Part shown: in pieces, positions 41,477-60,646 of the stretch | How the letters are laid out: every line of letters starts with the position of its first letter | Numbering within the stretch: position 1 is the first letter of the stretch | NCBI GenBank assembly: GCA_963733675.1 | Contig: CAVTET010000012.1 | Coordinates: 224,001-288,000, forward strand | Reading direction: 5' to 3' | DNA length: 64,000 nt | DNA from: an uncultured Methanosarcinaceae archaeon | GTDB taxonomy: Archaea > Halobacteriota > Methanosarcinia > Methanosarcinales > Methanosarcinaceae | The notes under the pieces: model-generated | Told to the model about the DNA's origin: nothing | Database searches by the model: none | What the model saw: the letters and a program-made list of their open reading frames with translations, nothing else | Made by a program: the position numbers and the translations under genes

Positions 41477-43829
41477 TCACTGTCGAGCCATGACAATACG
41501 CATCTCAGCTTCCTTGTCTTCTATCAGTTGGCCGCTCACGTCCACTGTCACGCTATGAATCTTGCCTGTGAACTCCAAAAAGGGGGGACGATAGTCTGGT
41601 GTGACTGGTGCTCCATGAACTGAGCCACAGGTTACTCCACCAGTTAACCCTAACGTAAGTGGAGTTGTCACTGGTAACATTTAGCTTGGCCGACTAACGT
41701 TCCGTCTATAAAGAGCTTAGCAATTCCAGGTGAACCCTTGCCATTAGCAAAATCTGGCTTACCGGTCACCTCAAACTCAAACCCGAGTTGATGTCTCCCT
41801 TCAGGAACATTCTCATTGAACTCTACATGATATAATGCTCTAGATACGTAATTGTGCACCCAGTGAAGTTTTCCATCTTTGATATAGAATGAATAACCGC
41901 CATCGATACCGCCATGAGAGAGCAAGATTCCTTCCACTCCCCCTGCAGGGATCTCGACATCGGCTATAATACTGTGGGGACGGTTGAGAACTTTGACTGC
42001 TGCATTTGCGGGAATCACCTGAGTTCCGGGATAATAGGTGTAGCGTGTTCTTTGGACTGCAATCTGTGGTCGATCATCGACAAAACGTAGAACTCCTCGA
42101 CCATCGATAGGTAGTACGTTATACTTTCCGGCTTCTGCATACCAGGTGGCAACCATCTCAATTAACTTTGGTCGATTATCTGTAGCAATATTGTAGTTCT
42201 CTGCCCAATCCTTCTCAATGTGGTAAAGCTCCCAGCCTTTTGCATCGAGCTCAGTCAATGTATCTGCAGAAATCGGTTCGCCGAAGAATTTCCCTGCTTC
42301 AGTGAACGAAGGACCAGGCCACGGACATACGGCACGCCAGCCATCATGATACAGTGAGCGGTGTCCCATCATCTCGAAGTACTGGGTGTGGTGCTTGGTT
42401 GGTGCATTGGAATCGTCGAAGGTATGTGCAAAACTTACCCCTTCGATAGGTGATTGACTTACACCTTTGATAACCATCGGAGGTTCGAGCCCTAGGCACT
42501 CCATAATTGTAGGTAACATATCGATAGCGTGGGCATACTGAGTGCGAATCTGGCCTTTAGCCTTAATTCCTCTGGGCCAGTGGACTATAAAGGGATCACT
42601 GACACCACCACGGTAGGTCTCTCGTTTCCAGCGGCGGAAGGGTGTATTTCCAGCCCAAGTCCAGCCCCATGCATAATGATTATAAGTCTCTGGGCCCTCA
42701 AGTTTATCTAGGGCTGCGAGATTTTCCTCTACAGATTCAGGTACATTATTTAAAAACCTGGACTTGTTAATTGATCCAGTAGGACCACCTTCAGAGCTTG
42801 CTCCGTTATCTGAAATTACCATTATCAACGTATTCTCAAACTCACCAATATCTTTGAGAAATTGCAACAACCGACCAATGTGGTAATCGGTGTGTTCAAG
42901 GAACCCAGCAAAGACTCCCATCATACGGGCATAGAGTATCTTCTCCTCAGGTGTGCATTGGTCCCAGGGTTTGACATCTGGATCATGGCGAGATAGCTCA
43001 GTTTCTTTTGGAACGATACCCAGTCCTTTCTGCCGGCCTAATGTCTTCTCCCGGTAAACGTCCCACCCATCATCGAACTTACCTTTGTATTTATCTGCCC
43101 ACTCCTTAGGAACATGATGAGGAGCATGCGTTGCTCCTGGACAGAAGTACATGAAAAAAGGTTTGCTGGGTGCTATTTGTTTGGAATCAGCAATGAACTG
43201 GATGGACTTGTTCACTATATCCTCATTCAAGGTGTAGCCTTCTTCTGGAGTTTTGGGAGGGTCTATAGAATGATTGTCGTAATCAGCTCAGGGTAATACT
43301 GGTTTGTATCACCTCCTAAAAAGCCATAGAAGAGCTCAAAACCTCTTCCCAAAGGCCAACGGTCATAAGGTCCGGCTGCAGACATCTGTTCAGCAGGTGT
43401 CAGATGCCATTTGCCGATTGCAGAGGTGTTGTAACCGCATTGCAGAAGCATCTCCGACAAAAAACCATTTTCATAAGGTATATTACCGTTGTAGCCTGGA
43501 AAGCCAGTTGATCCTTCAGTGATACATGCCATGTTATTCGAATGATGGTTTCGGCCGGTAATTATGCACGAACGGCTAGGAAAGCACAGCGCAGTGGTAT
43601 GCATATTGGAATAGGCCAGGCCTCTCGCGGCCAAACTATCAAGGTTGGGTGTATTTATAGGACTACCATAGCATCCAAGTTGTCCAAATCCAGTGTCATC
43701 CAGCACAATGAACAGTACGTTAGGAGCGCCCTCTTTAGCTTGCAGTGGCTCTGGCCAAGCTGACCCCGACTGGTCTTCTGTACGTCCAATTACGCCTGGA
43801 AAAGTGGTTCCTGGTTTGTATTCTTTCAT
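41477..43829 (-). pseudogene. Arylsulfatase (AslA-like, Cys-type) with frameshifts
   Basis: PNVLFIVLDDTG, TALCFPSR (CxPxR), GKWHL, SDNGAS; split into three ORFs at ~43270 and ~41680. Confidence 0.9.
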
Positions 43830-44147
43830 TGACACATCTTTTCCTCCAATCGCTAATTGACATTTTGTAAAGCTCTGAAAGAGAAGGCTAAATAGGGGAA
43901 AAAACTTTATTATTTTGACCATTTTTTGTTAGAATTCGTAATTTGGCATGTCCACGAGTTTTTGAAAATTATAACCATAAGGCTCGTCCTACATTTATCT
44001 AAAAATGGGAAAAGCACTTGTTTTTCATATTTTATCAATGACTCAAGGATATGACTCACAATTTCTTGCCTGAAGATCAATTATTAAAAAAATAAAGTGG
44101 TTTCCAGAAAGTTTACTCTTGGTAGAAACTGATTCGTTTGGTGGACT

Positions 44148-45455: not shown

Positions 45456-46223
45456 TTTTATGCTACTTCGCTGTCGATTTAATCCTCATCTTTAGTTGAT
45501 GGGGGGTGACATATAGTTACAATCAGAAAACTGATAAAAGTATATATGAAGCAGTGGGCTTTTGAGAAAAGCATTTATAAACTATCCAAAAAAGTATCCC
45601 AACTCCACTGTAGAAAAAGTCTCTGAATTTGTTGCAAATTCCAACAAAAAGATTCCAGAATATGAGAGAGAATTGGATATCCTATAGCATAAGAAAAAGC
45701 TAAAGAGCTCTATAAATGTGGGCAGCTGTGATATAATAATCTTACTTGAGATATATTATCTCAAGTTGAGTAAATAAGGATCTAAGCTCCTTTTGTTTGG
45801 GGGTTATCTCTTAGTTAGGTCCTTGATAAGCTTTCATTTTCAGATACATAGTTACACTAAAACATTTTATTCCAGGATTTATGTTTTAGTGCATTTATGT
45901 ATCATGATATATTAGCTGAATATGCTTTAATATATATATTTTGCAAATATTCTATATCTTAATATAGACTACTAAATATTACACAATGTATGTAATCCTA
46001 ATCTTATGAACCATGGACATCACAAAGGGATTAGCAATAACAATAAAAAATAATTCTCAGAGCAAAGAAATTATTTATAAAACAACAAAAAATTATAGAA
46101 AATTCCGATAAATTACAATTTTATTCTAGTTGTTTATAAAGTTTATATAGTAGCATTTTTACTCAAAGGTAAATCGGAATTCATTATATAAAAATATATT
46201 ATTTATAATATAATATTAACTGG

Positions 46224-46523
46224 TTAGTAGTAACCCCAACCGTCATAAGGGTAGCTATGCCCCAGGGATAACCCTATGCCCCAGGGATAACCTCCCCAAC
46301 CGCAGCCGCCGTAGGCAATTAAAGGCATGCCCCAGCCGCCATAGCCCCAGCCACCACAGCCACCATAGCCGCAGTCATCATAGCCCCAACCGCCATAGCC
46401 GCCTCGGCCACCATAACCGCCGTGATGTGCACTAGCTGCTACAGCTGTCAAAGATACTACAAAAAAAGCTGCCAGCAAAATAGACATTCCTTTCTTCATG
46501 TCATTAGAAGATAGTTTCAACAT
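46224..46523 (-). CDS. Small secreted Gly/Tyr/Trp/Cys-rich peptide (family member 1)
   Basis: RBS AGGAGTGG; leader MLK..S..MKK..SILLA..FVVSLTAVAASA; core of GGYG/GGWG/GGCG repeats. Confidence 0.8.
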   Translation of the reverse strand: MLKLSSNDMKKGMSILLAAFFVVSLTAVAASAHHGGYGGRGGYGGWGYDDCGYGGCGGWGYGGWGMPLIAYGGCGWGGYPWGIGLSLGHSYPYDGWGYY

Positions 46524-47035
46524 TTGTTACCACTCCTATTTTATTCAATTTGATACAATGTAAATCAGTTTAAGACTTACGAAGTTTAACAGCAAAAAAA
46601 GTAGTTGTTAAATGTGTAAGTCCTGAATTTAAATAAACACCAGATTTTATCACATGCTATAACTGATCTACATACAACTAGTGAAAAATCGGAAGTTTAT
46701 CAAAACTCTCTCTATTTCATAGCACGTGCCTACTCAGTACCAAAGCACAGTGATGAAATGTAAAAATCACTCGATTTTGGAACCTAGTCGTGTATGCCAA
46801 TAGAAGGTGATTTTTAATTATATCATCATTACATTATTATTATCTAATGAATATAAAATAGCAAGAAATATAAATACAGGATGTGAGTTACTCATATTTA
46901 ATAACTGTTAAAAATATTTATTAACTCATCATACTATTTGTCTTCATGTTAAAATTATCTTTTTCTCAATCAGACTGAATCGTTAATAAGTCTGTTTTCC
47001 TGGATTAAGGTTTGAATATGGACAGCTTTATTATA

Positions 47036-47268
47036 CACAGTTTTTGCATCAAAAGCTTTGAATTTCCTAAGTTCCATTTGAAATAAGAAAACATTGTTAA
47101 TCTATTACTCATGGAGCTTATGGAATTCCTAGAGCATATGGAGCTCATGGAACATTTGGAATTAATTAGCCTAAACAACTATCATAAATAAAAAAAGAAA
47201 AAAATATTTATATAATGCTCTAAACAAAATTGAAATATAAATAAACGGAGTCAAAAATTCAATTTTTC
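47036..47268. repeat. ~235-bp dispersed direct repeat, copy 1
   Basis: Aligns by eye with 48014..48256; includes a 9-bp periodic core. Confidence 0.8.
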
Positions 47269-47308
47269 AATATTCAGTAAGTACTAAGTAGCTAGAAATA
47301 GCTACCTA

Positions 47309-47536
47309 TCAAGTATAGATATCACCCGCATAATCTGGTTGGTTTACGGCTGCATAATCTCTGTTGGGGTTCCCCGCATAATATGGGGTGTCATAAATAC
47401 CGCCGGGGCCATAACCACCTCCACGGTCCCCGTAGCCTTGTGCACTCGCTGTCACTGCTGTCAAAGATAAAACAAAAAGTACTGCCAGCAAAATAGACAA
47501 CACCTTTTTCATTCTACTAGATATGTGTTTCAACAT
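47309..47536 (-). CDS. Small secreted Gly/Tyr-rich peptide (family member 2)
   Basis: Leader MLKHISSRMKKVLSILLAVLFVLSLTAVTASA; 43-aa core with repeated P.YAG. Confidence 0.8.
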   Translation of the reverse strand: MLKHISSRMKKVLSILLAVLFVLSLTAVTASAQGYGDRGGGYGPGGIYDTPYYAGNPNRDYAAVNQPDYAGDIYT

Positions 47537-47560
47537 TTTCTTTCACCCATTTATGGTTAA

Positions 47561-47606
47561 AATTAAAAATTATAATAGAATTTAATTAAAAATTATAATA
47601 GAATTT
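47561..47606. repeat. Perfect 23-bp tandem duplication upstream of peptide gene 2
   Basis: AATTAAAAATTATAATAGAATTT x2. Confidence 0.85.
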
Positions 47607-48013
47607 GTTTTTGGTAACTATTCAAGCTATCAAAATTTAGTTGGTTGATATCTATTCTAGTACACCAACAAATTTTGATGAACTACAAAACATACTTAGT
47701 TTGTTAGTTATTTTAAATTAATTATAAAAAAAATAGTTTCTGAATCAAAATTATTTCCCCATAAGATATTTTAACATTGAACAATAATTTAATATTAATT
47801 ATGTTTTTTATAATAGTTCTGGGTAAAGATTATTTCTGCGTGAGACATTGAAAAAATTATATCTAATTTGATATTAATCATAGATTATCATTGTTTCTGG
47901 ATTTTTAGCCATATGTTGTGAATAGTATCCAAATTACTCATGAAAATAAAAGGTTCATTAAAATATTTATCTATATTTTAAACGCAAAATTTTGATGATG
48001 GTATTTTTTTGTG

Positions 48014-48256
48014 CACAGTTTTTTTTGTTCTAAAATCTATGCATTTCCTAAGTTCCAAATGAAATAAGAAAAGGTTACTGATCCAGAACTTATAGAGCTC
48101 ATGGAACTCCTAGAACATCTGGGGTTCATGGAACATCTGGAACTAATTAAAGCAAACCACAAGCATAAATAGAAAATATCAGAAAATGAAATAATAGTAA
48201 AGTACTCTAAACAAAATTAAAAATGTGAATAAACTGAATCAGAAACTCATTTTTTC
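48014..48256. repeat. ~240-bp dispersed direct repeat, copy 2
   Basis: Aligns by eye with 47036..47268. Confidence 0.8.
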
Positions 48257-48470
48257 GGGATAATAGTTTTATTTCAGAAATTTCTAATAAATCTTCCCAT
48301 CTTCCTATGCTTAGAACTAATTACAAAATAACAGGAGTAGGATTGTAAGCACTTGAAGTACAAAATTAAGCACAATAGGTATTGTGGTCACATTAGCTTC
48401 TTAAACAGTAGACGGTTTAATATTATTTATTTCTCCGTTCAACTGCGTAAGGCCTATTGTAACGAATATT

Positions 48471-48812
48471 TCATTTTTCGTTGTTGTAGTCATAAAATAC
48501 AATTTTAATTTTTTCTTCTGTGATCAACCCTTGGGTAATTATTTCGTCTAATTTTGGTTTGATCTTATCAATTTTTTCTTCGATATCAGCTATTTCGATA
48601 AGTATTGGCAAATCAGTGGATAACTGCAATATAGATGTTGTATGAACATGGCTGTGTTTTCCAAAACCAGCAATGCCTCTAAAAACAGTTGCCCCTGCGA
48701 TTCCTTCATTTTTGAGCATCTCAAGTATATGCATATACATCGACTTGCCTTTATATCTATCAGACTCTCCAATGAATATTCTCAATAATATAGCCTGAGA
48801 TTCCTTTTTCAT
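48471..48812 (-). CDS. DUF190 (PII-like) protein, CrcB-associated
   Basis: LRIFIGESD, GIAGATVFRGIAGFG, LS.DLPI.IEI.D; overlaps the crcB stop. Confidence 0.9.
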   Translation of the reverse strand: MKKESQAILLRIFIGESDRYKGKSMYMHILEMLKNEGIAGATVFRGIAGFGKHSHVHTTSILQLSTDLPILIEIADIEEKIDKIKPKLDEIITQGLITEEKIKIVFYDYNNEK

Positions 48813-49207
48813 CTAATTCCCCTGAATAGATAAGTGCCAACATTTAAAGCTACAATTTTCCCTAAATAAACTGCAAACATGGAAAATAATACGGTCACCA
48901 TCAGATTTATTGCCATTAGTTTTAGTTTTGAATCGTCAAGTAATCTGAATGACTCATAACTAAATGTTGATAATGTTGTATAGCCACCGATTAATCCAAT
49001 TGTCAAAAATATCCTGGTTTCTTCGCCAAAGAATCCTTGATATTCAGAAAGGTACATTATTAAACCTAAAAGAAAACTACCACTAATGTTTACAACCAAA
49101 GTACCAACAGGGAAATTAACGAAATTGTTCTGTACCCATCCACTTAAAGTATATCTCAAAATAGAGCCTATGAAATCTCCTATGCCTACTAATAGAAGTG
49201 TGTACAA
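48809..49207 (-). CDS. crcB: Fluoride channel Fluc/CrcB
   Basis: G..LRY, FPVGTLVVNISGSF, G.IGGYTT.STFSYE; riboswitch upstream. Confidence 0.93.
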   Translation of the reverse strand: MYTLLLVGIGDFIGSILRYTLSGWVQNNFVNFPVGTLVVNISGSFLLGLIMYLSEYQGFFGEETRIFLTIGLIGGYTTLSTFSYESFRLLDDSKLKLMAINLMVTVLFSMFAVYLGKIVALNVGTYLFRGIR

Positions 49208-49228
49208 GTCAAACGCCTCGATGATTGT

Positions 49229-49285
49229 GTAGAAGTCATTAACATAAGTGGTTTAGACTTAATGATCGAGGTGGACTTCATCACC
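49229..49285 (-). ncRNA. Fluoride (crcB) riboswitch
   Basis: Minus strand GGTGATGAAGTCCACC...TAAACCAC..GTTAATGACTTCTAC; P1 GGTG/CACC and pseudoknot GAAGT/ACTTC; directly upstream of crcB. Confidence 0.9.
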
Positions 49286-49433
49286 TTTCAAGGAGAAGTT
49301 CACCAATATTAGATAAATAATTTATGCAAGCGTGGATAATCCTCTATTATTTGGTTGGTTTTGTTTCAAAAATAAAAGTAGAGTCATTTTTCGGTTTTTT
49401 TGTTTCGCATTTCAATGGTGCTTTATATCGGGG

Positions 49434-50663
49434 GAGTATATGAAATATGTGGCAGAAATCGAATATAATGGTGTGCCAATTGATACCGATCTACTTAATG
49501 AGTTACAAGAAAACTGGGAAAAAATAAAATTTAAATTAATCAAAATATTGACAAATTTGGAATCTACGAAGGAACCAGTTTTAAGATTAATAACTTTGAG
49601 AGATTACTTCAAGTCAATAATTGGATGTGGCCGAGAACTGATACAGGTCTGCCAAAAACCGATAAGGAAACTTTCAAGGAAATGACAGAAATCCATCCTG
49701 AAATAGGGCCTTTGAAGGAATTAAAAGCTCTCATCGGTGGGCTAAACTTTAAATCTATTATGGCTGGTTCAGATGGCAGAAGTCGAACCTTAATATTTCC
49801 CTTCTGGACCAAGACAGGTAGAAATGCCCCAAAGGATGACGAGGAAAAAAAGAATAGAGGAGAATTAAGAGTTAGGTTTATGTTTTGACTTCCTGCTAGT
49901 CTGAGAAGTCTAATAAAACCTATTGAGGGAAAAGTACTTGCGTATATTGATTATGCACAGCAAGAGTTCTTTATTGCAGCAGTTCTCTCTAAGGACCCAA
50001 ATATTATTGAGGCGTATCAGAGCGGGGATCCATATCTAGCTTTTGCAAAACTAGCAGGTGCTGTTCCAGCAGATGCTACAAAAGAAACGCATGGCACAAT
50101 ATTAGACAGCTCTTTAAATCGTGTGTCCTTGGAGTTCAATATGGTCTGGGTGCAGAATCACTTGGGTTTAAAATTGGTAAGCCTACACCTTATGCAAAGG
50201 AGCTATTGAGCCATCATAAAAGAATTTTCAAAAATTATTGGCGTTGGGGAGATATGATCTGGAATCAAGCCTGTTTAATGAAAAGGATCGAAACCTGCTA
50301 CAGATGGAAAATGATTGTTTCAGGATCCAGCAATAAGGAAATGTTAACCGGCCGAAATTTCCCAATTCAAGCCATTGGAGCTGAAATTATTAGAGTGGCA
50401 TGCATCCTTCTCTCGGAGAATAATATTAAAATTGTTGCTCCAGTTCACGATGCAGTGATGATTGAGTGCGACGAAAAGGCGGCAGACAAAGAGAGATAGC
50501 TAGAAAGCTTATGTGTGATGCATCGGAAATCGTTTTGGGTGCAGGTAACAGATTGAAAACAGATGTCGATATTGTCCGTTATCCTGGCAGGTATATAGCT
50601 GAGAAAGGTGCCGAAACTTGGGAGCTTATTACGCGGATACTCATGGAGATAAAACAAGAGTAA
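49434..50663 (+). pseudogene. Family A DNA polymerase (mobile-element type), 5'-truncated and fragmented
   Basis: GVPID; TKTGRNAP; motif A YIDYAQQEF; motif B RQLFKSCVLGVQYG; NFPIQAIGAE; motif C VHDAVMIE. Confidence 0.88.
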
Positions 50664-50873
50664 AACCCACCATAAATGCGGCTGAAAGATCCTGGGCAGA
50701 CTTTTCAATTTAACTGTAGAACTTAATCCCAATTTAGCTATAGAGCCATATTAATTAGCTGTACAGCTAAATTCCAAAGCCTTACAATATCGATTTGACT
50801 ACTTATATTTCTTTAGTATATCTTCTTTATTTCTACTTAATATTTAAAAGTAATATTTAATGGGAGTAAGATA

Positions 50874-51215
50874 ATGCTGGTGAATCCTAAAGATAAAATA
50901 AAGAGGTCTTTCATATCTCAAATGCCTTCAGATTGGATTATAAAGTTACCTTCCAATTCAGTGGGGCATACATACAGGGTGGCTATGTATATTTGGCATT
51001 TAAAAGGGGTGAAGAAATCTAATGATCTAGTAGTCACTTTGAAAGGGATAAATTCATTTTTACCTATCCCGGATTGGGCTTTTCCGAAAGCATTGGATGA
51101 GTTAGAAAAATGTGGGATGATAAAAACCATAAGAGGACGTGGTAAAAGTCCCGTAGTGACTGTTTTATGCAAAAATTGTTATGAAGGGTATCCAACTTTA
51201 AATTTCGATCACTGA
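50874..51215 (+). CDS. Putative winged-helix DNA-binding protein downstream of PolA
   Basis: KALDELEKCGMIKTIRGRGKSPVVTV is a wHTH-like wing; RBS GGGAG. Confidence 0.65.
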   Translation: MLVNPKDKIKRSFISQMPSDWIIKLPSNSVGHTYRVAMYIWHLKGVKKSNDLVVTLKGINSFLPIPDWAFPKALDELEKCGMIKTIRGRGKSPVVTVLCKNCYEGYPTLNFDH

Positions 51216-51313
51216 GATGAACTGAAAGTACATAGGTTATATGTCGTTTTCAATTTTCTTTATGCTCTTACAGTGCTTCCAAAACTTTGATTCGCTATTA
51301 AGGGAAATATATA

Positions 51314-52168
51314 GGATTCCGTTGCAAAAAATCCTTTCTAATGATACAATAGAATAAAACGAAAACCAAAGATAGTAATATGCTATCTAATTCCTTTAAA
51401 TGGAAGCATTATGAAGGAGAAATTATCCTATTGAATGTAAGATGGTACTTAAAATATCCATTGAGCTATAGAAATTTAAAGGAAATGATGATAGAAAGAG
51501 GAATTCAAGTTGATCACAGTACTATAATGAGATGGGTGCATCAATATTCCCCTGAACTAGAAAAGAAGATAAGAAGACATTTAAGACCAACAAATGATTC
51601 ATGGAGAGTTGATGAAACCTATATCAAAGTAAAAGGTAAATGGAAATGTCTTTATCGAGCAGTTGATTCCAATGTAGATACAATTGATTTCATGTTAAGT
51701 GCAAAACGAAACCGAAAAGCAGCGAAGAGATTTTTTAAGAAGGCTTTGAGTTCTAATCATAATCAAATTCCAAGAGTAATAACAGTTGATAAGAATCCAG
51801 CTTATCCACCTGCTATAGATAAACTGAAAAATAATAACATACTACCTAAAAACGTAGGCATTCGACAAATCAAGTATTTGAATAACATTATAGAACAAGA
51901 TCATAGATCTATAAAGCGAATCGTTAATCCAATGTTAGGATTTCAGTCTTTTCGATCTGCTAATAAGACTTTAAAAGGAATTGAAGCTATGAATATGATC
52001 AAAAAAAACAAGTCAATAATCTAAATTACTCTGTTCTTTGTGAAGTCAAATACATTAATCAATTGTTTGGTATAGTTTTATAATGTTAGTACATTTTCCT
52101 TTAATATTTTGATTTGTATTCATTACTTATAGATTTACATATTTTTTTGAATTTTTTGCAACGGAACC
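51314..52168 (+). mobile_element. IS6-family element (copy e); transposase 51380..52024 C-terminally frameshifted
   Basis: TIRs and DDE motifs; ends 2 bp from the ilvD stop; no TSD. Confidence 0.95.
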
Positions 52169-52170
52169 AC

Positions 52171-53832
52171 TCAGTCCACTATCCCTCCTGTATTTGCGGA
52201 ATGGACTGAACGCTGGTATTTGGCAAGGTAACCTGTGACTTCCTTTTTAGGTGGCACAAGAACAGCTTTCCGGTTCTTAAGCTCTTCTGTGGAAACCCTC
52301 AGGTTCAGGATCCTTTCAGGAATATTGATCTCTATCAGATCTCCATTTTTGACCAGGGCAATTGGTCCTTCTTCGCTAGCTTCTGGGGAAACATGTCCGA
52401 TACAGGGACCACGGGTTCCTCCAGAGAAACGTCCATCAGTTATAAGCGCCACAGATCCCAGCAGATCCATACCTCCAATTGCAGATGTGGCTGCAAGCAT
52501 TTCCCGCATCCCAGGACCACCTTTCGGGCCTTCGTAACGGATGACTACAATATCCCCGGGCTTCACTTCGCCTGCAAGAATACTTTTCATAGCTTCTTCC
52601 TCACAGTCATAAACTTTGGCAGGTCCTGAGTGAATATGCATTCTTGGGTCAACTGCTGTCTGCTTAACAACCGAGCCATCAGGTGCAAGACTGCCTTTAA
52701 GGATTGCAATTCCCCCCTGAGGATGAATGGGTTTATCTAGCGTTGCAATTATCTCTTTATTAAGCACTGGGTTAACAATCACTAGTTCATTAAGATTTTC
52801 CCCTATGGTTTTGCCATTAACCGTAAGCTGCTCGATATGAAGTTTAGAGAAAAGTCTCTGCATAACTGCCTGAACCCCGCCCGCTCTATCAAAATGTAAC
52901 AAGAAATTAGAGCCCCCAGGACGAAGAGAGATCAGATTTGGGATTGTTTGACTCAGTTCGTCAAATTTCCCTAGAGAGAGTTCTAGCCCAAATTCATGGG
53001 CAATAGCAGGGAGGTGCAGGGTAGTATTCGTGCTTCCTCCGATCGCCATATCTACCATTATGGCATTTTCGAATGATTTAAAATTAACAATTTTTTTGGG
53101 AGTCAGGTTCTCTATAACCATTTCCACTATACGTTCCCCAGTTTCCTTTGCAATTCTTGTCTTTTTTGCATCCACGGCATGAGCAGTTGCACAGCCTGGA
53201 AGGCTCATACCGAGAGCCTCAGTCATGCAAGCCATGGTATTAGCAGTAAACATCCCTGCACAAGATCCTGCTCCAGTGCAGGAAAGATTTTCGAGCCACT
53301 TAAGATCTGTATCGGATAGTTTTCCTACTCGGTGAGCTCCCACTCCTTCGGAGACTGAGATCAGATCCGTGTATTTGTCATTTACATAACCTGGGAGCAT
53401 CGGTCCTCCCGTTATAACAATTGAAGGGATATCAAGTCTACCTGCTGCCATAAGGTGCCCTGGCACAATCTTATCGCAGCTAGGAATTAGGACCATACCG
53501 TCAAATTGGTGGGCTTTAACCATCAGTTCAATTGTGTATTCAATAACTTCTCTGCTAGGGAGGGAATATCTCATACCCTCGTGGCCCATCGCTATTCCGT
53601 CACAAACACCTATAGTATGGAATTCAAAAGGAACTCCACCAGAGTTCCTGATCCCAGCTTTGACAGCTTCAGCAAGTCTATTCAGATGAATATGGCCAGG
53701 GATTATCTCATTCCACGAATTGACAACTGCGATGAACGGCTTCTTCATCTCGGCATCTGTGATACCAGTCGCTTTCAGAAGTGAACGGTGGGGAGCGCGT
53801 TCCGGCCCCTCTTTGATGATGGAGCTTTTCAT
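52171..53832 (-). CDS. ilvD: Dihydroxy-acid dehydratase
   Basis: [65 protein letters not shown]. Confidence 0.97.
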
Positions 53833-54727
53833 TGTAAATCTCCTTAGGATTTCATAGTTAGAATTCCAAGTTTAATTATAGTATAGATGTGAGAAGACTT
53901 AATAGTATAAACAAATTGGGGAATAAAAGACCGTGAAGATAGTAGTAGAATGTACTAAAACATTATATTGAAAGTGAAGATTGGACAAAGAATCCTTGAT
54001 AAACAACGAATTTTTCCCGTTTTTTATTCCTTATTCAGCTTTGAAAAACAAAGGGATGTTATCCAAATTCATTGAACTACGCATAATATTTAGAAAATAA
54101 GACCAGCTATATCTAACACACTTTCTGCAGTTGTACAAAAGAATGCCATCCATTAAACGGTGACAAAAATTAATTAAATACCATCAATTTTGAATGATTT
54201 TGATTCGTCTATACAACTTATCATCAAAGAAAAGAGCTGATAAATTGCATTATTCATCTCAGGTATAAAACCTTTTTTCAAGAAGTTTGTAAAAATTTGT
54301 GGCTAGTCAATATATGAACGAAATTTTCTAAGCCTTATTCGAAAAAACTTGATTGTTGAATCATTTGATGTTGAATCATTTCATTCAGTGAATTTGTGCA
54401 ATGATTTTTGAATTAATATTATCTGTTTCGTTATGTTTCAACACCATCATAACTCGTATATTTCGAACTATAACAGATATCTGCTTTATCACTGAACCAT
54501 AAATAAAAATCCAACAGTCATTTTTTGTAGGTTATAATAGCCTGATTTATTCTATTCAAGTATTTAAAAATGTACTTATAAACTTTCATGTATCTAATTT
54601 ACTATTTCCAATATCCCTTTTTTTTGTTAAGTATGAATCTAAAAGACCTTCCTTAAATATAGATTAAAAAAATAAAAAATGGCTGCAGTTAAATATATGT
54701 TCTATCAAAAATAAAATAGAGTCGTCC

Positions 54728-56710
54728 ATGCAAAAACAGACAATCTATGGAATCGATATCTCCAAAGGATCTCCACGGGGAAGGGAGCTTCCCAGATACT
54801 CACTTGCTATTCTCAAAGACGGTAAGGTTTCTCATCAAATAATGCTCAGTCGCCAGAAAATATTTAACATGATCCAGAGAGATAAGCCAGATATAATAGC
54901 TGTTGACAACATTTTTGAGCTTGCTGCAGACAGAAGCGAGCTTATTTCTCTCATGGAACGACTGTCTGAAAGCATTAAACTTGTTCAGGTAACAGGTGGG
55001 CTACACCCAGAATCGCTTGTTAGGATTGCGCGGGAACACGGGATTTCTTTTGATCCTAAAAATCCTAATGATGAGGCTGAAGCATGTGCTCGCCTTGCAG
55101 ACCTTGGAGTTGGATCTGAGTTATCTCTATTTGAAGATATCACAAAAATCAAGGTGAGCAGAGCACGTTCACTTGGAAGAGGGGGCTGGAGCCAAAATCG
55201 GTACCGTAGGAAAGTACATGGAGCTGTACTGCAACGGAGTAGAGAGATTGAAAATATTCTGAGAGACCTCTCGCGGGAAAAAGGTATAATATTCGAAGCT
55301 CTAAATGTAAAAGGGTTCGGAGGTTATGTCAGGTCTGAGTTTACTGTGTATGCAAAACGCGGAGAGATACCAATACATTCTATGGCAAGTAATGATGCGC
55401 AAGTAATTGTAAAAAGCGTAGAGCGAGATAAAATTCGCTATGTGCCCCTCAAACAGAAGAAACTGAGGCGTAGATTCACAATAGTGGGAATCGATCCAGG
55501 AACAACTGTGGGCATAGCTATTCTATCTCTCGATGGAGACCTTCTCTATTTAAAAAGTTTTAGGGGAATAGCTCCTGATGAAGTTGTCAAGCTCATTGCT
55601 GAATACGGAAAACCTGCTGTGATTGCCAGCGACGTTACTCCAATGCCAGTTTCGGTTGAAAAAATTAGGCGGAGTTTCAATGCAGTCCCTGCGAGCCCTG
55701 GAATTGAGATTTCTGCTGAGGAAAAAATTGCGCTTGGAAAGGCTTTCGGTTACTCAAATGATCATGAAAGGGATGCATTGACTGCGGCTCTTCTCACCTA
55801 CAAAAGTTACAAGAATATTTTTACTCGGATTGAAAAAAAAGCCCAAGTAGATGCAGATCTTGAGCTTCTTAAGCTCTACGTAATTCGGGGAGATTCAATA
55901 GAAGATGCAATTGAAAAAATCAGAGCACCAGGAGCTCTTGTAAATACAAGGGTTCAGAAGATTCCGGAAAATCCAGGTGAAAGAGTAATTGATGAATCCC
56001 TTCTAAAAATGAGGGAGATCATCCAGCGGCAGAGGGAGCAGATTCAAAACTTGCAAATATATCTTGAGGAATTAAAGAAAGAACTAGCCATAAAAGACAA
56101 GAAAACTTCAAAGCTTGAGTCCAAGTTGAACGGCTTTAAAAGAGAGGCTTACAGCGAAGTTCGTAAATTAAAAGAGATCAAGACAAGGGATGAAATTATA
56201 GAAAGCCTGAAAAAAGAGCTCGGTCATAAAAATAAAACTTTAAAGGAACTCCGACACCGTAGCAACAAACTTCGGAAAATCCGAAAAATGGAAATCAGCG
56301 GCGTAGGTACCCCTGTAAAGTTGATTACCGCTTTTACAAAGGAATCGATTGCTGAAACAAAAGAAAAATATGGGTTTAGAGAAGGAGATGTAGTTTTCCT
56401 GGAAAATCCAAGTGGAGGCGGAGCTTCAACAGCCCAGATCCTTGTAGAATCAAAAGTTAAGGCAGTACTCATCCAGGAAGACATTTCGCATGCAGCAGAG
56501 GAAACCTTCTTTAAAGGAGGTGTACCTGTCTTAAGGGGCATCCCACTTGAAAGGGCCGACGATTTTGCAATAATAGAACCTGAAGTCCTTAAAGCTGCAA
56601 TTTCTACCTGGGAAAAAGAAGCTGAGATAAAAAACCGCAGAGCTAAAGAAGATCATCTAAAGATCCTCTTTGAAGAATACAGGAGTGAGAGGCGCAGAGG
56701 TCTTGTTTAA
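54728..56710 (+). CDS. DUF460 domain protein (RNase H-like folds + coiled coil)
   Basis: GRGGWSQNRYRRKVH, IVGIDPGTTVG, NDHERDAL motifs; long coiled coil. Confidence 0.85.
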   Translation: MQKQTIYGIDISKGSPRGRELPRYSLAILKDGKVSHQIMLSRQKIFNMIQRDKPDIIAVDNIFELAADRSELISLMERLSESIKLVQVTGGLHPESLVRIAREHGISFDPKNPNDEAEACARLADLGVGSELSLFEDITKIKVSRARSLGRGGWSQNRYRRKVHGAVLQRSREIENILRDLSREKGIIFEALNVKGFGGYVRSEFTVYAKRGEIPIHSMASNDAQVIVKSVERDKIRYVPLKQKKLRRRFTIVGIDPGTTVGIAILSLDGDLLYLKSFRGIAPDEVVKLIAEYGKPAVIASDVTPMPVSVEKIRRSFNAVPASPGIEISAEEKIALGKAFGYSNDHERDALTAALLTYKSYKNIFTRIEKKAQVDADLELLKLYVIRGDSIEDAIEKIRAPGALVNTRVQKIPENPGERVIDESLLKMREIIQRQREQIQNLQIYLEELKKELAIKDKKTSKLESKLNGFKREAYSEVRKLKEIKTRDEIIESLKKELGHKNKTLKELRHRSNKLRKIRKMEISGVGTPVKLITAFTKESIAETKEKYGFREGDVVFLENPSGGGASTAQILVESKVKAVLIQEDISHAAEETFFKGGVPVLRGIPLERADDFAIIEPEVLKAAISTWEKEAEIKNRRAKEDHLKILFEEYRSERRRGLV

Positions 56711-56819
56711 GATTTACCTTTAAATTTCTCTTAAATTTAGAATGTATTTTAGTTCCTTAAAAAGCCTTTATTTCCTATCAGAAAAGATATTTTACCCTGT
56801 TACACTCAGAAGAATTAAA

Positions 56820-57655
56820 ATGATAACATCTGCATCCAGCAAATCCAAAAATCTTGGAGATTCGTCATCAACATGATAAAGCTCCAGCTTTGTGCATCTA
56901 GCTTAGTCAATGTATCTGCTGAAATCAGTTCTTAAAGGATTTTCCTGCTTCAGTGAACGAAGGACCAGAACATGGACATACGGCACGTCGGCATCATTAT
57001 ACAGTGAGCGGTGTCTCATCATCTCGAAGTGCTGGTGTGTTGCCTGTTTGATGCATTGAAATCATCGAATGTCTTTGCAAAACTTGCACCTTAGATAGGT
57101 AATTGGCTTATACCGTTGATATATCAGATGACTCAATTCCTAAGCACTCCAGAACTGTAGGTAACATATCGATAGCGTGGGCATACTGAGTGCGAATCTG
57201 GCCTTTAGCCTTAATTCCTCTTGGCCAGTGAACTATAAATGGGTTACTAATGCCGCCGCGATAAGTCTCTCGTTTCCAACGGCGGAAGGGTGTATTTACA
57301 GCAAATGTCCAGCCTCCTGCATAATGGTTGTAAGTCTCTGGATCCCAAATTTATCCGAGATGTGAGATTATCCTCTACATATTCAGGCACATTATTGAAA
57401 AATCTGAGCTCGTTAATTGATCCCATGGGACTACTTTGAGGTTTGCCCCGTCACGTGACATTACCATGATCAATGTATTCCCAAACTCACCAATATCTTT
57501 CAGGAACTAAAACTAGCGACTAATGTAGTAATCGGTAGGTCTGTTCTAGGAACCCAGCAAAAAACTCCACCTTGAGGGCATAGACTTTCTTATTTGAGAT
57601 GAGCATTGGTTCGAGGGCTTGACTGCCGGATCATGGCGAGATTTATTTCTTTTGG
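56820..57655 (-). pseudogene. Second, heavily degraded internal arylsulfatase fragment
   Basis: Nucleotide similarity to ~42100-43010 (shared gtaggtaacatatcgatagcgtgggcatactgagtgcgaatctggcctttagccttaattcctct). Confidence 0.88.
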
Positions 57656-58003
57656 AAATGTAAAACATTATACAGTAAAAATTAGATTAATCCTTATGAA
57701 TTAAAGCTGAATTCATATTTTAAGTAGTCTGGATTTACTAAATCTAGTCAAACAATAATCAAAAGTTTTTCTGAATTTCGACAAATTTGACTGGTAGTCT
57801 TAAGGATACTTCGTCCTTCAGATTGAAGTTGAAGTTCACAATTTAATTTTATTTCCAATATGCACTTAGTACTATTTTTCGATTTTTTTTCGTTAGGCGC
57901 CTCAGAAGGGTTAATTAATAAAAATTTGCTTTAGCAGATGAAAACTCAAACTTTAGTTATACTGTAAACTTAATTATGAAGATGTCAACTACTTAAAGAC
58001 TAA

Positions 58004-58872
58004 GAGCCTATTGGAAAAATAATATACTTTCAATTTCAGATCATGTGTGGTAATGACAAAACTGAAAATTGTTCAGCACTACGAACTTTCTGAAGATTAT
58101 TGGAAAAAATAGAACCTTTACTACTGTACCTAAGCCAAAAAAGAAGTCTGAAAGACCTAGAAAGGGTGATAGGAAAATAATGAGTGGCATTTTCTATCTC
58201 CTTGTTACTGGTTACCAATGGAAAGCATTGCCACGATTTTATGGAGCTCCAAGCACTGTACATGATCGATTTCAGGAATAGCGACGATCAGGCTTATTTG
58301 AGAGCATGTGGCTGGCTGGTCTTGTTGAGTATGATTTCGAAAAATGATTTAGAATGGGAATGACAATCAATTGATGGTGCTATGACAAAAACACCATTAG
58401 GTGGAGCTGGAACAGAAGCCAATCCTACTGATCGTGGCAAAAAAGGTACAAAAAGGATTGTTTTAACTGATGGTAAAGGCATACCACTTTCTGTTGTCGT
58501 TGATGGAGCCAATCGTCACGATAAAAAGCTTGTAAAAAGGACTTTAGACGCCATATTCTTTGAAAGACCTTCTCCAGAAGACATAATTCAGAATATATGC
58601 ATGGATAAGGGTTATGATTTCACAGATATCAGAAAATTGGTTGAAGACTATGGTTATACTGCGCATATCAAAAGTCGTGGAGAAGAAAACATAAGAAGGT
58701 ACATACCTGGTTTTAGGGCAAGAAGATGGGTTGTAGAAAGGGCACATTCTTGGTTGAATAGATTCAGAGACTCCTTATAAGATGGGAAAAGAAAATTGAA
58801 AATTACCTTGCTGTCCTACATTTAGCGTGCGCATTGATAACTTCAGATCAGCAGGACTTTTCGGATAGCCTC
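58004..58872 (+). mobile_element. IS5-family insertion sequence, defective copy 2
   Basis: Near-identical to the reverse complement of 4463..5333; flanks TAA/TTA. Confidence 0.92.
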
Positions 58873-59050
58873 TTATTCCTAAAAAAGAAAAAAGTTGAAG
58901 GTCTTATACTTATTTTTATGACCATTGCTAGTGGATTTTTTTCGGGTATTTTTGTGCAGGATTATAAAAGTATTTAGACCTATCTGCACTTCGCATATAA
59001 TCTTATTGTTTTTATATTTCTCAGTTGTTGTTATCTTTTATGGGTTAAGG

Positions 59051-59359
59051 CTAAACAATGGGGTTAAAATGGCCTGAAACTGTACCGGCTGGTATCTCTC
59101 CCAAGTAGGGGAAGCTGGTTGCTGGGGAAGGACAAGATACAACCCAGGCTCCTGCGCCATTATAAACATACTGACAAGGGCCTGACCAGTTCCAACCCCA
59201 GCCAAAGCTATCACCCCAGCTTCCTCCTCCTCCCCAAGGTCCACCACGGTACCAACCAGGACTTGCACTCGCTGTCACTGCTGTCAAAGATACTACGAAA
59301 AGGACTGCCAGCAAAATGGACAAAACCTTTTTCATTCTACTAGATATATGTTTCAACAT
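59051..59359 (-). CDS. Small secreted Gly/Trp-rich peptide with two Cys (family member 3)
   Basis: RBS AGGAGTGA; leader differs from member 2 at one of 32 residues; unrelated 70-aa core. Confidence 0.8.
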   Translation of the reverse strand: MLKHISSRMKKVLSILLAVLFVVSLTAVTASASPGWYRGGPWGGGGSWGDSFGWGWNWSGPCQYVYNGAGAWVVSCPSPATSFPYLGEIPAGTVSGHFNPIV

Positions 59360-60646
59360 CTATTTCACTCCTTTTTATCAAATTCTATACAATTTTAATC
59401 CGGTTGAAACTTGCGCAGCTAAATTGAAAAAGCACATTATTGACAACATTGTGATTGTCCTTTCAAATCTCGTTTATTTTGTATTCCTTTATCGACACTA
59501 GGACATTTGTATGTGATTCTCAGTTTAACTATGCAAGTTCAGGACCATTATTAATTATCATTATTATTTATAAATCATTTTATATTAATTCATATATATT
59601 CTTTAAAAGTGGCATCCGAATATTTATTAATTGTGCTTTATAGGTACTAAACAAGGTGTAAATAACAAAGTTATGTTTAAGAAGCAAAGTGGTTGTGGTA
59701 TCCTATAACTAGAAGCCAGTATTGAGATTAGTAGTCTCAATACTCCTTGATGTAAATGAATATTGGTAACAGGAAACAAGTATGTAATAATGGAACAGCA
59801 ATCACAACAGAAGATTAAGGAAGACAGTGCCTAAATTCCGATATTGGTCTTCTATATAACATTTGTACTCTTTAATCATTTTTTGGAATTTTTCTCATGA
59901 GTTACTCGCAGGGTAGAAGGTTTATAGACTTTATGCATTATTCTATATCCATCAGGCACTCTGCCACTGAAATTGGAAAAATGCATAGATTTTGTCACAC
60001 AAAAACTGTGCATCTTAGATTAAATAAGACTCTAAAATTGAGTACCTCAAACATTTAATATTCTTTACATATAGAATGTTTTATTAGTAGTTCAGAGAAT
60101 ACCAAAAAAGTTGGAAAATGACTAAATTATTCCCTATACTTCTTGATATTTGAACACTAGTTAGCAAGTCTAGTGAGCGAAAACTTAAAGGAATCTTCGC
60201 TTTTTTCTAATATAAGCCATGGTTGATTAAAGTTTCACCATTTTTTAACTTCTCCATGTATTTTAAAGATATTCAGCTTGCTTCAAAAGTGAATATATAA
60301 AGATGCCTATCCGAAAAATTATCAATTGCATGTTGTGAAGTGCCTAGGCAGGGAGCGGGAAAGACACATAAACTTTGTGAGCTCATTACCCATGGTGACG
60401 TTCGAATCTTGCAGTTAATAATTACCCATTAACTGATTAAAGATTCTACTTTAGAAGAATTATAAGGATATATTTTTATAATTTTCATTCCATAACATAT
60501 TTTCAAGATATCAAAGGTGAAATTTTTGGATGCCAAGAGTAGTAATCTTGATTCAGAAAAAATTTTAGTCTCATTTACCATACTTCTTTAATAGACAAAG
60601 TTAGATTAAAACTTGAAAGTGGTTCCCCTGTGTTAAAATTTTGCTT

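Follow-up and report, generated by a model that had tools for sequence, protein, structure and literature searches.

Lineage-specific conserved signals such as YSIRK-G/S, KxYKxGKxW and the haloarchaeal surface-glycoprotein signal TIGR04207 are found mostly on large surface proteins. The conotoxins, the frog-skin peptides and the mussel family MgCRP-I are animal toxins or defence peptides with cysteine frameworks and with introns between their modules, while the leaders of ribosomally synthesized and post-translationally modified peptides (RiPPs) such as the prochlorosins and the Nif11/NHLP families are recognition sequences for modifying enzymes and have no hydrophobic core. Small exported proteins of yet another kind are SilE and PcoE, which are periplasmic His/Met-rich metal sponges. 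Here we describe a set of small proteins with a common leader, starting from three genes (members 1, 2 and 3) on a 64,000-nucleotide (nt) stretch, hereafter the window, of contig CAVTET010000012.1 from an uncultured Methanosarcinaceae archaeon (assembly GCA_963733675.1, positions 224,001 to 288,000 of the forward strand). The three genes belong to a Methanosarcina-restricted superfamily that is set by a shared 5′ module and not by a shared mature domain.

All three open reading frames (ORFs) are intact and lie on the minus strand, at the intervals listed in a first-pass annotation made from the sequence alone; read on the plus strand, the same intervals are full of stops, and that reading was ruled out. 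Member 1 (46224-46523) encodes a 99-residue precursor, with leader codons at 46428-46523, core codons at 46227-46427 and the stop codon at 46224-46226. A Shine-Dalgarno (SD) sequence, GGAGTG, is found at 46531-46536, 7 nt 5′ of the ATG. By composition count, its 67-residue core holds 28 Gly, 11 Tyr, 6 Trp, 3 His and 3 Cys, the last of which corrects the four cysteines given in the first pass. Member 2 (47309-47536) encodes 75 residues, with leader codons at 47441-47536, an SD-like GGGTGA recognized from the alignment at 47543-47548, 6 nt 5′ of the ATG, and a Gly/Tyr/Asp/Pro core of 43 residues (47312-47440) devoid of Cys and His. Member 3 (59051-59359), delimited by the ORF list, its translation and a 13-sequence alignment, encodes 102 residues, with leader codons at 59264-59359 and GGAGTG at 59366-59371, 6 nt 5′ of the ATG. 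Its 70-residue core (59054-59263) comprises a Gly/Trp stretch, a conserved NWS sequon and the Cys-flanked loop CQYVYNGAGAWVVSC, with 2 Cys and 1 His in total. The stop codon of member 3 is TAG (59051-59053), at a position where its relatives have Gln or Glu, then one further codon and then TAA; this could be a two-residue truncation or, in a genus that uses pyrrolysine, a putative read-through. As first noted, all three cores contain an RGG early on and, past the A-S-A motif, are otherwise unrelated. Member 3 has 11 metagenome homologues with full-length identities of 70 to 91%, none of them named, and member 2 has near-identical proteins (P0017 and P0018) in two other samples. Because members 2 and 3 have full-length homologues, the three ORFs are complete genes and not parts or remnants of larger known ones.

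The 32-residue leaders translate as MLKLSSNDMKKGMSILLAAFFVVSLTAVAASA in member 1, MLKHISSRMKKVLSILLAVLFVLSLTAVTASA in member 2 and MLKHISSRMKKVLSILLAVLFVVSLTAVTASA in member 3, ending with LTAVAASA in the first and with LTAVTASA in the other two, in agreement with the first-pass annotation. Its further statement that members 2 and 3 are one leader residue apart, with mostly synonymous DNA differences, also held: the residue is V23 or L23, and by a by-eye count on the alignment 7 of the 96 leader bases differ, six synonymously and one causing the V/L change. The 5′ regions of members 1 and 3, likewise described as similar, are part of a 171-nt match at 75% identity (blastn) that runs from about 74 nt 5′ of the ATG through the leader end. 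The upstream block of member 3 (59360-59433, minus strand) resembles that of member 1 (46524-46597) by both blastn and alignment, is unlike the upstream blocks of member 3's own core relatives and belongs to the 5′ module that is exchanged between genes. A profile built from the three leaders was searched against the 62,576 stop-to-stop frames of at least 30 residues in the host genome (3.92 Mb in 15 contigs, approximately 36% G+C, 92% complete) and scored its own members at E values between 4e-21 and 6e-20. The resemblance among the three leaders is far beyond chance.

The family consensus of the 32-codon leader is MLKQSSSRMKKVLAILLAVLFVVSLTAVAASA, laid out as MLKQSSSRMKK, then VLAILLAVLFVVSLTAV, then AASA (22 aligned leaders; 25 codon columns). 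The first Met (M1) is taken as the start because just 16 of the 25 full leaders have ATG as codon 9, and GGAGTG lies 6 to 8 nt 5′ of the first ATG in most family members. The features of a Sec-type signal are all present, namely a positive n-region, an uncharged hydrophobic stretch of about 21 residues (V12-A32) and a small-x-small (A-x-A) motif before the mature part, which is ASA in all three focal genes. From these features, the leader is predicted to be a Sec-type signal sequence and not a RiPP recognition leader. An archaeal class III (prepilin-like) signal peptide has a [K/R]-[G/A] motif immediately before its hydrophobic stretch. Member 1 and its subtype read KKG-M at this position, and KKV-L is found in members 2 and 3 and in the consensus, so most leaders do not fit this motif. 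No dedicated sorting machinery was found in a search limited to signal peptidase I, which gave two matches in the genome, one of them with stops and neither near a family gene.

Presented at first as a family of three genes, the set proved to have about 65 copies in this genome and to be genus-wide. The three-leader profile finds 65 frames at E ≤ 1e-3, i.e., the three focal genes and 62 more, and a broader profile (A1), built from 22 leaders, gives 66 matches in the same genome. With the broader profile, 16 of 19 further genomes from the genus gave 3 to 19 matches each, compared with a single weak match (E 1.9e-4) among 101 genomes of 15 sister genera. One member in genome G116 is identical letter for letter to an NCBI "hypothetical protein" of Methanosarcina vacuolata Z-761, which identifies the genus carrying the family as Methanosarcina. 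The 30 loci with named records all come from Methanosarcina or from Methanosarcinaceae metagenome-assembled genomes (MAGs), save one on an untitled metagenome chromosome. Complete genomes of Methanosarcina carry a diverged leader, MGKQIFDRTKKILCIFTLVFFVISLTAASASA, followed by cores with Lys/Trp/Asn/Glu repeats, Cys/Asp-rich tails or GYxxGY repeats; an exact look-up of 10 members from these genomes returned one "hypothetical protein" of Methanosarcina, the other nine not being in the collection as delimited. In a protein library of 1.84 billion representatives, 399 match the leader profile at E ≤ 1e-3. Among the best 150 of these 399 matches, the median length is 81 residues; 141 have at most 120 residues, 6 have 121 to 200 and 3 are longer, one of the three longest being an unrelated repeat protein of 1,028 residues.

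We also used a crude signal-peptide screen, made for this analysis, over all genome frames. Among the positive ORFs, the leader is found on none of the 36 with at least 300 residues, on 4 of 47 with 150 to 299 and on 39 of 156 with 60 to 149. The leader is not a generic signal peptide, and the concern raised in the first pass, that it might also sit on many large unrelated proteins, is answered by these counts. No Pfam or NCBIfam family covers the three proteins, which have only sub-threshold signal-peptide or low-complexity matches in these databases, and the best ESM Atlas scores (0.78 to 0.81) are to unnamed clusters, scores below 0.9 serving as leads only. The earlier picture of uncharacterized small proteins, putatively exported, whose leader is common to all and whose cores are unrelated is borne out. 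The leader family is undescribed in the full-text literature searched, which did not extend to supplementary tables, where single members may be listed; the available portions of PMC9425974, PMC4158269 and PMC4350412 give no account of it.

How the leader came to stand before so many cores can be read from its DNA. Averaged over pairs of 25 ungapped leaders, identity is 0.72 at the first codon position, 0.82 at the second and 0.73 at the third, and identical residues are encoded by the same codon in 75% of 5,473 comparisons versus 31% expected from codon usage. The 96-nt flanks, compared ungapped and anchored on the leader, have identities of 0.40 and 0.31, which we take to be near background. 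Given the same-codon excess and the unalignable flanks, the leader is an island of shared DNA descent amid unrelated flanks. Member 3 is a case in point. Its mature part aligns with a paralog on contig C7 and with orthologues in two MAGs, but its leader is of the member 2 type (89 of 96 nt) and its upstream region of the member 1 type, whereas its core relatives share another leader and another upstream region. Relative to them, the leader of member 3 has a nonsynonymous divergence (dN) of 0.18 to 0.23 and the core one of 0.06 to 0.07, in agreement with leader exchange. The picture of a constant leader with a divergent core therefore stands between paralogs and is reversed among the relatives of member 3, where the core is the better conserved part.

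By upstream region, 49 members from across the genome form 26 classes, of which the largest (U00) contains 12 genes of 7 core classes, including a cupredoxin, a cytochrome b5-like protein, poly-His proteins and member 2. Related pairs with a common upstream region but different cores number 45, and those with a common core class but different upstream regions number 175, the core classes being inflated by low complexity. The promoter-SD-leader block has been exchanged between genes, and diversification has also proceeded via indels and frameshifts in the low-complexity cores, leaving many decayed copies: 17 of the 65 frames are shorter than 60 residues, and about 9 or 10 run on, out of frame, into another member's core. 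Two identical family genes were also observed in inverted orientation on one 50-kb contig (C13:8978-9238 and C13:42324-42584), with flanking repeat copies that are identical too, pointing to either a large inverted duplication or a repeat in the assembly.

We then turned to the mature parts. Compared with the long ORFs of the genome, the 49 cores of at least 25 residues are enriched in Trp (3.7-fold), His (2.9-fold), Gly (2.6-fold), Pro (2.1-fold), Cys (1.9-fold) and Tyr (1.8-fold) and depleted in Leu, Glu, Arg, Phe and Ile. His makes up at least 10% of 10 of these cores and Gly at least 25% of 12, and 19 have a His within the first three mature residues. A Cys-flanked, Trp-rich loop, C-x-W-V-x(3-9)-W-x-x-C, occurs in 10 cores, including that of member 3. 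The cores of members 1 to 3 are rich in Gly, Tyr and Trp, and residue counts, with Glu counted by reading, give them a net acidic or neutral charge. A Pfam search with 59 members identified one cupredoxin, also matched by the NCBIfam amicyanin model, and one cytochrome b5-like protein; it gave no other clear fold in these 59, the remaining matches being weak (E 3.6e-4 to 6.9e-4). AlphaFold2, supplied with the 13-sequence alignment, modeled member 3 at a mean predicted local distance difference test score of 52, with confidence for the leader helix only and a low-confidence hairpin between the two Cys. Purifying selection acts on the core of member 3: the ratio of nonsynonymous to synonymous divergence (dN/dS) is 0.13 to 0.19 at a dS of 0.35 to 0.51 against one paralog and two orthologues of its mature part, and the N-W-S sequon is nearly invariant among its relatives in the alignment.

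Clustering of the ORFs neighboring family genes revealed one functional link, to the nickel/cobalt uptake genes CbiM and PDGLE. An MGKQ...GW-type member comes after the CbiM-PDGLE pair in five places, and in four of these a Cys-loop-type member is oriented divergently on the upstream side. The order in these cassettes (L051 to L055, at C13:27403-30326, C5:314641-317585, C3:634729-637885, C1:1008150-1011028 and C7:4263-7943) is Cys-loop-type leader gene, CbiM, PDGLE and MGKQ...GW-type leader gene, the C7 copy having no first gene, and CbiM is broken in several of them. PDGLE has 6 matches in the host genome and 0 to 2 in 30 other genomes of the genus. Being paralogous to one another, the five cassettes represent one or a few events. 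In the close relative G132, the CbiM-PDGLE locus has one family gene, which is frameshifted. Conserved synteny with CbiM-PDGLE was rejected as general proof of a metal role in view of the orthologous loci considered below; the link is a lead for the MGKQ...GW and Cys-loop subtypes and is not evidence for members 1 to 3.

On balance, we consider that members 1 to 3 are probably exported, mostly disordered envelope or cation-binding peptides of the Methanosarcina superfamily. Translation would begin at the first ATG, and the long positive n-region and the hydrophobic core would bring the nascent chain to the Sec translocon. Signal peptidase I, for which the genome has a gene, would then cleave after A-S-A, or the leader would be retained as an N-terminal anchor, leaving beyond the membrane a Gly/Tyr/Trp-rich and largely disordered peptide of 43 to 70 residues. 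Such a peptide may bind cations or may form low-complexity material of the envelope or matrix, and is presumably neither an enzyme nor a RiPP antibiotic; the putative matrix or aggregate role raised in the first-pass annotation is possible. Sec export, cleavage and an extracellular role are what we infer from the sequences.

Several observations weigh against this interpretation. According to a study of Methanosarcina mazei and Methanosarcina acetivorans (PMC4350412), 31 N-termini were recovered and signal-peptide excision was seen in the surface-layer (S-layer) protein alone, excision being often over-predicted in Methanosarcina. The focal cores are poor in His (3, 0 and 1 residues in members 1, 2 and 3), contrary to a cation role, and Pfam found no transporter among 10 neighboring ORFs of the focal genes, so the cation idea rests on other subfamilies. 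Moreover, the association with CbiM-PDGLE is specific to this lineage, where duplication has multiplied it: of nine other Methanosarcina genomes, eight have no family gene in the 8.5 to 10 kb examined around the orthologous locus. The family genes sit in variable islands rich in insertion sequences (ISs) and repeats, and at least a sixth of the family is decayed, which fits conflict genes or neutral turnover too. Finally, the 24 RNA runs identified contain no more than 18% of the words sampled from positions 46100-54000 of the window, a 7.9-kb query that also includes housekeeping genes.

The leader could also stay uncleaved, as a signal-anchor for membrane-tethered proteins that show a short low-complexity tail under the S-layer. 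The proteomics of N-termini in M. mazei and M. acetivorans makes this a live rival, PMC4350412 reporting excision for only one protein, and the stretch V12-A32 is uncharged and long enough for a membrane span. Nevertheless, A-S-A or a similar small-x-small motif closes almost every leader exactly where the cores diverge, and none of the 31 N-termini is known to belong to the leader family; tethering of this kind is a possibility to keep in mind, though an improbable one. It is unlikely that the proteins as a whole capture or buffer extracellular Ni, Co, Cu or Zn, feeding or protecting uptake, with expansion in a metal-poor habitat. The His enrichment and the placement of His early in the mature part would suit such a function, as would the existence of poly-His/Met-rich and Cys/His-rich cores, the cupredoxin, the five cassettes, the PDGLE excess and weak low-complexity matches to the ZrgA and CzcI models (E 3e-4). 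However, members 1 to 3 have few His and no metal-transport neighbor, and the synteny is both absent from most orthologous loci and duplicated here.

The first-pass annotation had likened the set to RiPP or bacteriocin precursors and had proposed an antimicrobial (archaeocin-like) role as one of two alternatives. No modifying enzyme, peptidase-ATP-binding cassette (ABC) exporter or evident immunity gene is present around the focal genes in the ORF lists and the Pfam results for 10 neighbors, as the first pass had itself seen for modification enzymes and exporters, and among ORFs of at least 90 residues within 4 kb of the 65 loci no modifying, exporter, processing or immunity-like family recurs. 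The RiPP reading is unsupported for want of such genes, and the leader is of Sec type. Unmodified Sec-exported antimicrobial or interference peptides, with mature parts made hypervariable by an arms race, would be a different matter. A conserved signal, unrelated cores, many paralogs, strain-specific sets and variable islands do resemble offence and defence peptide superfamilies; plants and animals have Gly/His- and Gly/Tyr-rich antimicrobial peptides, which offer an analogy; and one member weakly matches PF25184 (YxzE-like putative bacteriocin, E 5e-4). We nonetheless regard an antimicrobial role as quite doubtful, with no immunity, exporter or processing gene recurring beside family members over the same scope, focal cores that are not cationic, a member 3 core under purifying and not diversifying selection, and ordinary redox proteins (cupredoxin and cytochrome b5-like) among the members; nothing found for the focal genes points to it. 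Many copies might alternatively be neutral, i.e., short-lived, functionless proto-genes that arise when a mobile promoter-leader cassette meets low-complexity DNA. The short and run-on frames described above are what such turnover would leave, many representatives in the global library appear frameshifted, and 20 of the 65 family genes lie within 1 kb of a 240-nt repeat, against 2.9 expected. The purifying selection on member 3 and its retention in at least 11 other proteins, the near identity of member 2 in two other samples and the recurrence of core types such as the Cys loop across genomes make this explanation very unlikely. A bolder version of the export model, to which we give little credence at present, would see in Methanosarcina a hyperdiversifying secreted-peptide system, in which a promoter-SD-leader cassette moves between loci by recombination and is fused repeatedly to fast-evolving low-complexity DNA, yielding strain-specific repertoires (about 65 genes here) that are recruited to interference or to trace-metal capture at Ni/Co uptake, as an archaeal counterpart of the conserved-signal superfamilies.

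The surroundings of the focal genes are varied. Pfam analysis of the 10 neighboring ORFs detected DUF1269, DUF190, CrcB, IS240 and IS5 transposases, DUF460, a PAS histidine kinase and a DNA polymerase A fragment, and two of the ORFs had no Pfam match. About 1 kb upstream of member 2, the minus-strand segment 48471-49294 is an ordinary fluoride-export operon composed of a DUF190 gene (48471-48812), crcB (48809-49207) and a fluoride riboswitch (RF01734, 49223-49294, 42.2 bits). Rfam found nothing else in the 5′ regions, and riboswitch control of the family genes was ruled out, the match being limited to crcB. The dispersed repeat of about 240 nt has two minus-strand copies here by blastn, 76% identical, one between members 1 and 2 (47027-47268) and the other upstream of member 2 (48005-48256), and 81 blastn matches in the genome, some copies being split into two matches. 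It was rejected as a regulatory RNA or partner gene, as it has no ORF, a fold z score of -0.61 and a variable side and orientation relative to family genes, and we read it as a dispersed repeat that shares the variable islands of the family. The first-pass remark that the focal genes are intact amid decayed accessory DNA is supported by a sulfatase-like gene split in two frames (41668-43922, minus strand) and by family-A DNA polymerase fragments (49332-50663, plus strand; weak Pfam match, E 1e-4); IlvD was also seen near the focal genes, like the split sulfatase by eye from the ORF translations. An IS240/IS6-type DDE transposase is encoded at 51380-52024 (plus strand), and its blastp cluster includes 114 ORFs of at least 90 residues in the genome, 16 of which are no more than 4 kb from a family gene. 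At 58069-58780 (plus strand), about 270 nt downstream of member 3, is an IS5-type transposase gene that occupies two frames (DDE_Tnp_1, E 1e-14). Downstream of the member-3-type genes on C7 and in locus L001 of another MAG is a Cys-loop-type family gene. In the whole genome, the S-layer domain DUF1608 (PF07752) has a single weak match (43 bits, C1:399837-400133), the major S-layer protein being perhaps divergent or missing from the assembly.

The space between the membrane, the S-layer and the outer matrix of Methanosarcina, a main model methanogen genus, is poorly known. A genus-specific leader found almost only on tiny, disordered proteins rich in Gly, aromatic residues and His points to an undescribed component of this envelope space, on a scale of dozens of copies per genome and 399 public sequence clusters. 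If the peptides bind metals, they would bear on the nickel and cobalt supply for methanogenesis, and if they are interference peptides, they would form a new class of archaeal antimicrobials. The leader could provide a ready-made secretion tag in Methanosarcina genetics, and the exchange of promoter-leader blocks clearly illustrates how genes can arise in modular fashion in an archaeon.

Compared with described systems, the poly-His and Met-rich tails of some family members recall SilE and PcoE. Squid-beak histidine-rich proteins (PMC6884462) are alike in Gly/His/Tyr/Trp composition, small size, putative export and predicted disorder. Neither comparison reflects homology, and the focal cores have little His. 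Proteins of NCBIfam NF041742 (WGxxGxxG) are likewise small, exported and Gly/Trp-rich, but only member 2 matches the model, at 14.6 bits (E 0.038) against a 35-bit cut-off, and it is not a member. The Nik/Cbi energy-coupling factor-type Ni/Co transporters offered another comparison, in which the family would be a transporter accessory; no neighborhood with CbiM/NikM conserved across species was found, eight of the nine orthologous CbiM-PDGLE loci lacking a family gene. The RiPP families are alike in placing one N-terminal sequence on many cores per genome; they differ in that the Methanosarcina leader is predicted to be Sec-type, with its hydrophobic stretch, in that no modifying enzyme or exporter is nearby and in that no Pfam or NCBIfam RiPP leader model (double-glycine, NHLP/Nif11) matches. 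With YSIRK-G/S, KxYKxGKxW and TIGR04207, the family has in common a conserved, extended N-terminal signal that marks the exported set of one lineage, but the Methanosarcina leader is almost only on proteins of at most 150 residues, and TIGR04207 scores 12.7 bits on member 2 and 11.2 bits on member 3, against a cut-off of 24.6, with no match to member 1. The conotoxins, frog-skin peptides and MgCRP-I resemble it in a conserved signal, here conserved even at synonymous sites, in unrelated mature parts and in many paralogs. Here, by contrast, the host is an archaeon, the cores are mostly of low complexity, nothing indicates toxic activity and the leader junction is a recombination breakpoint within a continuous gene. 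The leader family is new and undescribed, and it works like kinds that are already known.

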